From Deltaproteobacteria bacterium (GTDB taxonomy: Bacteria > Desulfobacterota > Desulfomonilia > UBA1062), in NCBI GenBank assembly GCA_018434685.1, contig JAHDOV010000004.1, positions 348,808-412,807 on the forward strand: a DNA stretch of 64,000 nt, given 5' to 3'. Shown one piece after another: positions 42,437 to 45,167 of the stretch (within the stretch, counting starts at the first letter, position 1; every line of letters starts with the position of its first letter). Below the pieces are notes generated by a model that saw nothing but the letters and a program-made list of their open reading frames with translations, ran no database searches and was not told the DNA's origin. The position numbers and the translations under genes were made by a program.

Positions 42437-42499
42437 AATCCGCTGTGTCCCGGGATCGACCCTGCCGCTCATCAAGGGTCAGGCCCCGGTCATGATCCT

Positions 42500-42516
42500 T
42501 TGCCTACAATAGGCAA
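42500..42516 (+). promoter_or_regulatory. perfect palindrome TTGCCTA-CAA-TAGGCAA upstream of the nrpR-like gene / gdhA operon; candidate operator
   Basis: 7-bp perfect inverted repeat with 3-nt spacer in the 340-bp upstream region. Confidence 0.4.
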
Positions 42517-42780
42517 TGAAAGAGGCAGCTGCCGATTCCCATCCTCATGGCCGGTGAATCGTTCGCATGCAGGCCCGCTGTTTTCCGGTCATTCTGAAGA
42601 ACAAGTTGTGGCAATCGGCACGGCAATTTCCCTATCACCTCCTGATGCCGTAAGGGAAACGGGTGCTGAAAACAGGGCGAAGAGAAGAGGGTGAGCGATA
42701 AATTCTGATTGACAGAAACGTGGCGTCCGTGTATGCAGCTACGGAAAACGGTTGCCGATAACCTTCCTATAAGGGATGCT

Positions 42781-43791
42781 ATGTTTGTATATGAAGAGAT
42801 AGAGAGAAAGAGTATCGTTATCCTGCGGATTCTCAATCAGGCAGGGCAACCCCTGGGAGCCCGCCTGATCGCCCGGAAGATGAAGGACTACGGGGTAAAC
42901 CTCAGTGAGCGGGCTGTGCGCTACCATCTCCAGTTCATGGACCAGAAGGGACTGACGGACCTTGTGGGGAGGAGAGACGGCAGGGTCATCACGGAAAAAG
43001 GCATCGAGGAGCTCAGGAATGCACGGGTGCAGGACAAGGTGGGGTATGCGATCTCCCGTATTGAGATCCTCTCGTACAAGACCACCTTCGACATCACCCG
43101 GAAAACAGGCCAGGTACCGGTCAATGTCTCTCTCTTCCCGGCACGGATCTTCCCCGATGCCCTCTCCGCCATGAAGGATGCCTTTGATGAAGGGTTCTGC
43201 GTGAGCGATCTCTGCTGTGTGGCAAGAGAAGGCAGATTTATCGGCGACATGCCTGTTCCGGCCGGATTCGTCGGGTTCGCAACGGTATGCAGCATCATAT
43301 TCAACGGTGTCCTGCTGAAACGTGGTATACCCATGGATTCTCAGTTCGGCGGCATTGTCCAGATGCAGGAGAAAAAGCCCATACGGTTTATCGAGCTCAT
43401 TCACTATTCCGGCACGTCACTCGATCCATCGGAGGCCTTTATCAGCGCGAAGATGACCGCGGTCAGAGACGTTATTTCCGGGGGTGACGGGAAGATCCTG
43501 GCAAACTTCCGCGAGATTGCAGGCATCTGCCGGGAAAGTGTCGGCGAGATCGTGGAGATGCTCGGCAAGGTAGGGATCCGCGGTGTCCTCTCCATGGGCA
43601 AGATGGGTGAGCCTGCCTGCCAGGTGCCGGTGGATGTTAACAAGGTCGGCATGGTGCTGATGGGCGGGCTCAATCCGGTCGCATCGGCCCGTGAGAAGGG
43701 GATCGAAACCGAGAACTTCGCCATGTCCACGGTGATGGACTACATGGATTTAAAGCCATTCTCTGAGATTTATCGTGAGATGAACGGATGA
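42781..43791 (+). CDS. NrpR-like transcriptional regulator (wHTH + NrpR/DUF128 domain)
   Basis: Internal ATG 42781 (MFVYEEIERKSIVILRILNQAGQPLGARLIARKMKDYGVNLSERAVRYHLQFMDQKGLTDLVGRRDGRVITEKGIEEL) matches the NrpR N-terminal wHTH pattern, followed by a DUF128-like body. Located 38 nt upstream of gdhA. Confidence 0.55.
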   Translation: MFVYEEIERKSIVILRILNQAGQPLGARLIARKMKDYGVNLSERAVRYHLQFMDQKGLTDLVGRRDGRVITEKGIEELRNARVQDKVGYAISRIEILSYKTTFDITRKTGQVPVNVSLFPARIFPDALSAMKDAFDEGFCVSDLCCVAREGRFIGDMPVPAGFVGFATVCSIIFNGVLLKRGIPMDSQFGGIVQMQEKKPIRFIELIHYSGTSLDPSEAFISAKMTAVRDVISGGDGKILANFREIAGICRESVGEIVEMLGKVGIRGVLSMGKMGEPACQVPVDVNKVGMVLMGGLNPVASAREKGIETENFAMSTVMDYMDLKPFSEIYREMNG

Positions 43792-43829
43792 GCACAATAA
43801 CAACGATGATAAACTAGAAAGGAGATCAT

Positions 43830-45167
43830 ATGCCAATTGTAAACAAAGCGTTGGAGGTGGTAAAAGAGAAAAATCCCAATCAGCCAGCCTTCTTGCAGTC
43901 AGTGACCGAGGTCCTGGAATCACTCAGGCCGGTGCTCGAGAAGAACAAGCGGTACCGGGATGCCAATCTGCTCGACAGGATCACCGAGCCGGAACGGGTG
44001 ATCATATTCCGGGTGCCGTGGCAGGACGATAAGGGCAATGTCCATGTAAACAGAGGGTTCCGCATAGAGTTCAGCAGTGCTATCGGACCCTACAAGGGCG
44101 GACTTCGCTTTCATCCCAGCGTCAATCTCGATATCCTGAAGTTCCTGGGGTTTGAACAGATCTTCAAGAACTCCCTGACCACCCTGCCCATGGGCGGGGG
44201 AAAAGGCGGATGCGACTTCGATCCCAAGGGAAAGTCCGACAACGAGGTGATGAGATTCTGCCAGTCGTTCATGAATGAGCTGTTCCGTCATATCGGTCCC
44301 AACACCGACGTGCCGGCAGGGGATATCGGCGTGGGCGGCCGGGAAATCGGCTACCTCTTCGGGCAGTACAAGCGTCTCAGGAATGAGTTTACCTCGGTAT
44401 TGACTGGCAAGGCCCTGTGCTACGGCGGCTCTCTGATCCGTCCCGAGGCCACCGGCTATGGGGCTGTCTACTTTGCCCAGGAAATGCTCAAGACCCGCGG
44501 GGATTCTCTCGAAGGCAAGATCTGCACCGTATCGGGTTCGGGCAACGTGGCACAGTACACCGTGGAAAAGCTTGCCCAGTTTGGTGCAAAGGCCGTCACC
44601 CTGTCCGACTCCAACGGGACGATTTACGACAAGGACGGCATCGATGCTGAAAAGCTCGCATGGGTCATGGAGCTCAAGAACGTGCGTCGCGGCCGCATCA
44701 AGGAGTATGCCGAGAAATTCGGCGTGGAATACTACGACGGCAAACGGCCGTGGGGTATCCCCTGCGACTGCGCCTTCCCGTCGGCAACGCAGAACGAGAT
44801 CACCGGCAAGGATGCGGAGACCCTGCTCAATAACGGGTGCTTCGTGGTATCCGAGGGCGCGAATATGCCGACGGAACCTGCCGGCATTGACCGTTTCATC
44901 GAGAAAAATATCCTCTACGGTCCCGGAAAGGCTGCCAATGCAGGCGGCGTTGCCGTCTCCGGCCTCGAGATGAGCCAGAACTCCATGAGGCTTTCCTGGC
45001 CGAGTGAAGAGGTGGACGTCCGCCTCCACCAGATCATGCAGAGCATCCACAGCAACTGCTATGAAACCGCTGCAGCGTATGGGCATCCCGGCAATTACGT
45101 TATCGGCGCCAATATCGCCGGATTCGTCAAGGTTGCCGATGCCATGCTTTATCAGGGCCTCGTGTAA
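43830..45167 (+). CDS. gdhA: NADP-specific glutamate dehydrogenase
   Basis: [15 protein letters not shown], Rossmann GSGNVAQ motifs. 445 aa. Confidence 0.95.

Follow-up and report, generated by a model that had tools for sequence, protein, structure and literature searches.

A bacterial NrpR-family regulator encoded in front of gdhA and its predicted operator at a conserved promoter

To our knowledge, NrpR has been studied only in methanogens. In Methanococcus maripaludis the protein responds to 2-oxoglutarate as its established inducer. GGAAN6TTCC is the operator of archaeal NrpR (PMC2723118, PMC4335013), and the archaeal regulon comprises nif, glnA, glnK-amtB, molybdate transport and an alanine symporter, with NrpR also occurring in 'certain Bacteria' (PMC2723118). 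Here we describe an nrpR gene located directly upstream of gdhA on contig JAHDOV010000004.1 of a Deltaproteobacteria bacterium, within a stretch of 64,000 nucleotides which we call the window and to which all coordinates refer. The encoded protein is a member of the NrpR family, its promoter carries an inverted repeat of the archaeal operator geometry that is conserved among related loci, and in most of the related genomes a glutamate-forming gene follows nrpR. We consider it rather probable that nrpR and gdhA form an autorepressed operon, with NrpR bound to an operator at the transcription start and 2-oxoglutarate relieving the repression.

The nrpR-gdhA operon

The operon is made up of the following elements:

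42771..42776, plus strand: ribosome-binding site of nrpR, AAGGGA, read from the sequence, 4 nt before ATG 42781
42781..43791, plus strand: nrpR, NrpR-family regulator of 336 aa that combines a winged helix with one NrpR regulatory domain
43792..43829, plus strand: nrpR-gdhA intergenic spacer of 38 nt, without a terminator, carrying the ribosome-binding site of gdhA
43820-43824, plus strand: ribosome-binding site of gdhA, AGGAG, inside the 38-nt spacer
43830..45167, plus strand: gdhA, NADP-specific glutamate dehydrogenase of 445 aa (Pfam ELFV_dehydrog_N and ELFV_dehydrog)
45203..45241, plus strand: intrinsic terminator of the operon, with a G+C-rich stem of 12 bp and UUUUCU behind it

The nrpR product belongs to the NrpR family and shows the single-domain NrpRI architecture. 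In Pfam it matches PF01995 (NRD1_2, the NrpR regulatory domain) with E 1.3e-80 over residues 87-325, covering profile positions 1-237 of 238, and the winged helix PF08461 with E 8.8e-21 over residues 12-78. A sequence-only reading of this DNA had named an NrpR-like protein with an N-terminal winged helix and proposed a search with PF01995 as a check; both domain matches and the structure 3NEK bear this out. PDB entry 3NEK, the NrpR-like regulatory domain of MJ0159, is the sole solved structure with a highly significant match in sequence (E 4.4e-27) as well as in fold. The AlphaFold model of the protein, with a mean pLDDT (predicted local distance difference test) of 80.5, was aligned to it by Foldseek with a target TM (template modelling) score of 0.87-0.89 and a root-mean-square deviation of 2.8-3.0 Å over ~237 columns at 28% identity, and the N-terminal domain of the model resembles the winged-helix domains of PadR, LmrR and CggR. 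The invariant family motifs SLDPxE-F, GG-NP, RF and TxCS are also present in the archaeal MJ0159 domain. The most conserved motif of the family, YSGTSLDPSEAFI (residues 210-223, window ~43408-43449), is modelled at a pLDDT below 50, that is with very low confidence; it may form a flexible loop and could take part in ligand binding.

Bacterial NrpR homologues are numerous, with 6,210 of 8,000 scored candidates at E < 1e-10, and carry automatic names only. A query with the MJ0159 domain gave only 4 matches, and no well-annotated full-length archaeal NrpR was among them. The genomes closest to the locus are Thermodesulfobacteriota, Desulfomonilia and 'Deltaproteobacteria' metagenome-assembled genomes, in agreement with the taxonomic guess made earlier.

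The open reading frame (ORF) of nrpR extends from ATG 42781 to the stop codon at 43789-43791 and has 337 codons, 336 for amino acids plus the stop. The start codon had been chosen correctly in the sequence-only reading, but its length of 337 aa had counted the stop. An in-frame alternative ATG at 42733 leads to a 352-aa product, as in database entry P0001. This alternative start falls within the -10 element described below; most homologues have 336 aa and start at the same Met, and ATG 42781 is invariant in close relatives.

GdhA reached 763.5 bits against the NCBIfam equivalog PRK09414 (NADP-specific glutamate dehydrogenase, cutoff 536) and appears to be of the hexameric ~50 kDa class, its NADP specificity being read from the name of the model. 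The gap of 38 nt between both genes is exactly the one given before. No significant RNA structure was found in it by folding (z -0.25), and a consensus scan showed no plus-strand promoter-like site between nrpR and gdhA. Behind gdhA the region 45168-45260 folds with z -3.5, none of 200 shuffles being equally stable. The terminator at 45203-45241 was missed by the consensus terminator scan because of its 9-nt loop and was established by folding instead. As the gap holds neither a terminator nor a promoter and a strong terminator follows gdhA, both genes constitute one transcription unit, and their co-transcription as a two-gene operon, previously thought probable, is well supported.

The promoter and the operator-type site

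In order to read the region upstream of nrpR we compared the window with 80 related loci, one from each of 80 species-level genomes (counts out of 81 include the window), using the 140 nt before nrpR, and aligned the window with its 10 closest relatives (alignment A2, 11 loci). The following elements are present at the window locus:

42709..42714, plus strand: -35 box TTGACA, invariant in A2; most of the 80 loci show it with a constant spacing to the operator
42732..42737, plus strand: -10-like hexamer TATGCA, 17 nt after the -35 box, with GTATG invariant in A2
42742..42757, no strand: predicted NrpR operator CGGAAAACGGTTGCCG, with GGAA at 42743-42746, N6 and TGCC at 42753-42756, overlapping the predicted start at ~42744
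42760-42763, no strand: putative third half-site AACC, conserved, within GATAACC ending at 42763

Apart from the start codon, only TTGACA, GTATG and ACGGAAAA-GGTTGCCGATAACC are invariant upstream of nrpR in the closest relatives, GGTTGCCGATAACC being the block of the third half-site. TATGCA is the putative -10 element, judged by its spacing and conservation. The consensus promoter scan did not flag the nrpR promoter because position 6 of this hexamer is not a T, and the promoter was established by conservation instead. Upstream of nrpR the related loci show a constant layout, in which TTGACA is followed after 17 nt by a TA-rich -10-like hexamer and, 3-4 nt further on, by an inverted repeat.

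From 37 distinct sites we built a symmetrised operator matrix and accepted sites with at least 12 bits located at most 180 nt upstream of nrpR. Such an operator-type site lies upstream of 71 of the 81 nrpR genes, in Thermodesulfobacteriota and Dehalococcoidia, while a background of 16 sites in 609 kb would predict ~0.4. Applied to the whole window the matrix finds a single strong match of 21.7 bits, followed by matches of 9.8 and 9.7 bits which are at shuffle level. Counted from the first T of TTGACA, the operator begins 32-33 nt further on in 56 of 69 loci, and this spacing puts the expected transcription start (~42744 in the window) inside the left half-site.

The operator consensus is CGGnAA-N4-TTnCCG, i.e. 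GGnA-N6-TnCC, and its half-site pairs are GGCA/TACC (27 loci), GGCA/TGCC (15), GGAA/TGCC (12) and GGAA/TTCC (5), so that the exact archaeal operator GGAA-N6-TTCC is present at 5 loci. The bacterial element keeps the archaeal 4-N6-4 geometry and conserves six of its eight specified positions, the remaining two being degenerate. The sequence-only reading had suspected a different recognition site for the bacterial protein, an idea that finds no support in the conserved GGAA-N6-TGCC with its archaeal geometry or in the five exact archaeal sites. Following the 16-mer, positions 17-22 are conserved as A-T-n-n-C-C across clades, and GGTT (42750-42753) together with AACC (42760-42763) could form a second, overlapping inverted repeat GGTT-N6-AACC at 42750..42763. 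An Rfam scan of the whole window returned zero RNA families and therefore no known riboswitch or small RNA in the 344-nt region upstream of nrpR.

Some of the related loci show peculiarities of their own. In Syntrophales loci (e.g. L042, L045, L049, L051, L053 and L059) the nrpR ATG directly follows the third half-site (..TTGCCGnTTGCCTTATG), leaving a predicted 5' leader of ~20-25 nt without an obvious Shine-Dalgarno sequence. A second conserved block, GTGTGTCAAACAACCTCAAAGCATGTGCAAAACA..GTGTGAAAAG, is located ~60-130 nt upstream of the nrpR -35 box in L004, L007, L008, L010, L012, L013 and L014; the window lacks this block, to which another regulator may bind. L069, L072 and L076 carry a second full-length nrpR paralogue (37-42% identical) adjoining the first one, and the divergent intergenic region between the paralogues of L076 has two operator-like sites, one of them with 21.5 bits. 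In L069 a sodium:dicarboxylate symporter gene is found just upstream of nrpR.

Glutamate-forming enzymes and the proposed regulation

A glutamate-forming gene, either gdhA, a gene of a second gdh family or a glutamate-synthase-domain gene, is located directly 3' of nrpR on the same strand in 58 of the 80 genomes:

21 loci of 80: GdhA-type glutamate dehydrogenase (GDH), 64-93% identical to that of the window
22 loci of 80: different GDH family of ~415 aa, about 30-35% identical
15 loci of 80: protein of ~529 aa carrying PF01645, the FMN domain of glutamate synthase

A divergent gdh is also present in 6 of the 15 glutamate-synthase-like loci, and in 3 further loci, from Dehalococcoidia, the glutamate-synthase-like gene lies farther downstream in the cluster of nrpR. 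As three gene families that turn 2-oxoglutarate into glutamate stand behind nrpR, we regard this arrangement as good evidence of a functional link, which strengthens the nitrogen/2-oxoglutarate connection suggested in the sequence-only reading. Genes of the nif, glnA or amt type were found neither in the window nor in the flanks of the relatives. The sister clade L016-L027 accounts for 12 of the 21 unlinked loci; there nrpR lies between yggS and a glycyl-radical enzyme gene, and the synteny is that of the window minus gdhA and the 219-aa ORF which precedes the promoter region in the window.

The regulation that we propose would start from the sigma-70-type promoter (TTGACA 42709-42714, TATGCA 42732-42737), which would drive nrpR-gdhA with the transcript ending at 45203-45241. 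A dimer of the NrpR-family protein would bind the inverted repeat at 42742-42757, with the third half-site adjacent to it, and since the operator is placed directly on the transcription start, this binding would repress the operon of the regulator itself. Occupation of the operator by NrpR and the resulting repression are what we infer. A rise of 2-oxoglutarate would free the repressor, as for archaeal NrpR, and lead to more NrpR and NADP-glutamate dehydrogenase, and the additional GDH would consume 2-oxoglutarate, which would place 2-oxoglutarate and glutamate synthesis under negative feedback.

Several points weigh against this proposal. The -10 element TATGCA is weak and has no final T, and the transcription start at ~42744 is a prediction. 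A second operator beyond chance level was found neither in the window nor in the +/-4 kb flanks of the relatives (609 kb), near exceptions being a possible internal site before the glutamate-synthase-like gene of L074 and the two sites between the paralogues of L076. The divergent gdh promoter of six Syntrophales loci was searched for an operator of its own and has none, and the sister clade L016-L027 retains nrpR and the operator without an adjacent gdhA. The role of 2-oxoglutarate as effector and the direction of its action would follow from homology only. In enteric bacteria nitrogen excess, a state of low 2-oxoglutarate, favours assimilatory GDH, and because such a GDH is usually tied to nitrogen excess, induction by high 2-oxoglutarate is a hypothesis and its direction uncertain. 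In addition, a literature search, with subscription papers largely outside its scope, gave no study of the function, operator or targets of a bacterial NrpR; the sole mention was that of 'certain Bacteria' (PMC2723118), which agrees with the earlier statement that the bacterial homologues are uncharacterised.

It is possible but unlikely that the conserved operator is bound by NrpR in response to a different effector, such as glutamate, glutamine or another metabolite, or that 2-oxoglutarate promotes the binding. Such a change would be compatible with targets that differ between both systems, namely gdhA, gdh and the glutamate-synthase-like gene here versus nif, glnA, amt and molybdate transport in archaea (PMC2723118), with the identity of just 28% to the archaeal structure 3NEK and with the low model confidence of motif YSGTSLDPSEAFI (here residues 209-221), from which the ligand geometry is not readable. 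However, the invariant motifs are common to the archaeal MJ0159 domain, and all of the linked enzymes have 2-oxoglutarate as a substrate, so that no other common signal would be as economical.

We regard it as quite improbable that the inverted repeat is a 5'-terminal hairpin of the mRNA or the site of another regulator, with the adjacency of nrpR and gdh being inherited synteny. The repeat does lie within the first ~20 nt of the predicted transcript, a 6-bp stem is possible, and binding of NrpR to it is predicted from the sequence. On the other hand, in most sites the bases at the paired positions 4 and 13 of the operator do not match each other, and they show no compensatory variation, which favours a protein-DNA site and makes an RNA hairpin unlikely. 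Moreover, the element accompanies nrpR across two phyla and different neighbour genes and fits the experimentally defined geometry of the archaeal NrpR operator, and inherited synteny cannot explain three glutamate-forming families in differing arrangements.

The sequence-only reading had pointed to another element upstream of nrpR:

42500..42516, no strand: palindrome TTGCCTA-CAA-TAGGCAA (TTGCCTACAATAGGCAA), a perfect 7+7 inverted repeat outside the conserved regulatory module

It is present exactly as described, but neither its placement in the promoter nor a significance beyond chance was borne out, and it lies ~190 nt upstream of the conserved -35 box. That this palindrome is an NrpR operator or auxiliary operator defining a new bacterial site is hardly credible and largely refuted by the comparison: despite its perfect symmetry and arms that hold TTGCC and GGCAA, pentamers of the operator half-sites in an everted order and 7 nt apart, none of the 80 related loci has it, it falls in a block of ~270 nt that is unalignable among the 10 closest relatives, and it does not reach 9 bits with the operator matrix. 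Archaeal NrpR can use two operators, as at the nif promoter of Methanococcus maripaludis. Of the recurrence in relatives proposed with the palindrome, the linkage was confirmed for gdh or a glutamate-synthase-like gene (58/80) and the palindrome was not (0/80 upstream of orthologous operons). An everted TTGCC-N5-9-GGCAA was not found upstream of other nrpR genes except for one unrelated case, and the likeness of the pentamers is a curiosity because this arrangement is not seen at other loci. The window is rich in perfect inverted repeats, with 72 of them (versus 44.9 in shuffles) when arms of 7 nt or more are combined with spacers of 0-10 nt, and those with a 3-nt spacer number 8 versus 4.4 expected; further copies of the palindrome within 2 mismatches were not found in the window. 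The palindrome lies 64 nt after the stop of the uncharacterised 219-aa ORF, and as RNA it gives a weak hairpin (-7.5 to -8.1 kcal/mol, z -1.4) without a U-tract. A function as terminator of this ORF was ruled out on account of the weak stem and the missing U-tract. The palindrome is lineage-specific and probably non-functional.

For the 219-aa ORF (41777-42436), which immediately precedes the nrpR promoter region, neither Pfam nor NCBIfam gave a match; L006 is the only locus in which a homologue (48% identical) was seen, and the sister clade lacks the ORF. What separates this ORF from the nrpR promoter, including the palindrome, is lineage-specific DNA. Convergent with gdhA is a minus-strand cluster (45365-52923) that encodes two glycyl-radical enzymes (787 aa and 837 aa), a radical-SAM activase with ferredoxin domains (48607-49665), a PNPOx-like protein and a GntR/FadR-type regulator (52198-52923). 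The first glycyl-radical (PFL-like) enzyme gene of the cluster (45365-47727, minus strand), whose synteny with nrpR extends to the sister clade L016-L027, is split into ORFs of 533 and 254 aa in the window. Near 46151-46153 the window has CACCC where an independent Logan assembly (L001, with a single 787-aa protein) has CACCCC, one C more in a C-run, and the split probably stems from a homopolymer error of the assembly rather than from a true pseudogene. At ~58700-63000 there is a low-G+C island (0.39-0.48 versus 0.56 for the window) with a 797-aa ORF (59296-61692, G+C content at third codon positions, GC3, 0.47) without a Pfam match and two small low-GC3 ORFs; this island may be horizontally acquired DNA.

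Comparison with known systems

The family was already known in bacteria, and what is new here is the predicted bacterial NrpR operator together with a target set unlike the archaeal one. Syntrophales, Desulfomonilia and Dehalococcoidia have been described as syntrophic partners of methanogens. It is about an even question whether their NrpR proteins are archaeal-type 2-oxoglutarate sensors acting on sigma-70 promoters, with the operator kept and the regulation rewired from nif/glnA/amt to a local, autoregulated glutamate-enzyme loop which would set the levels of GdhA, the second Gdh or an archaeal-type glutamate synthase subunit. In any case the bacterial homologues gain a testable model that consists of a 16-bp operator at a fixed position of a sigma-70-type promoter, autoregulation and enzymes leading from 2-oxoglutarate to glutamate. 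If it is true, one repressor/operator pair would function with the archaeal and the bacterial transcription machinery, and anaerobes relevant to syntrophy, digesters and dehalogenation would possess an additional 2-oxoglutarate-sensing nitrogen regulator. The compact cassette of promoter, operator and repressor might also serve as a 2-oxoglutarate-responsive switch or biosensor for bacteria.

Like the window protein, NrpR from Methanococcus maripaludis combines an N-terminal winged helix with the NrpR regulatory domain fold, and the targets of both, in our case predicted ones, belong to nitrogen assimilation. The operators, GGAA-N6-TTCC there and GGAA-N6-TGCC here, have the same 4-N6-4 geometry and are both placed at the transcription start, in our case at a predicted one. 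The bacterial consensus CGGnAA-N4-TTnCCG differs from the archaeal site by extra conserved bases outside and inside the core and by a relaxed third half-site position. M. maripaludis NrpR has two regulatory domains whereas the window protein has one, and it acts on archaeal TATA/BRE (B recognition element) promoters whereas the predicted site of the window protein is on a sigma-70-type promoter. Unlike the M. maripaludis regulon, the sole identified, and still predicted, target of the window NrpR is its own operon with gdhA.

NrpRI from Methanosarcina mazei and M. acetivorans has the architecture of the window protein, with one winged helix and one regulatory domain in ~330 aa. NrpRI of Methanosarcina partners with NrpRII, a protein without a DNA-binding domain that contacts TBP and TFB, and a gene for an NrpRII-like partner was not seen beside the bacterial nrpR genes. 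MJ0159 from Methanocaldococcus jannaschii (3NEK) was crystallised as a chain without a DNA-binding domain, and it is to this chain that the 28% identity of the window protein refers. With respect to the regulatory logic proposed here, bacterial nitrogen regulators of other families, such as the cyanobacterial NtcA, are comparable as transcription factors that read 2-oxoglutarate as the nitrogen-status signal for ammonium assimilation genes, but they are of unrelated families and folds, and NtcA is mainly an activator.

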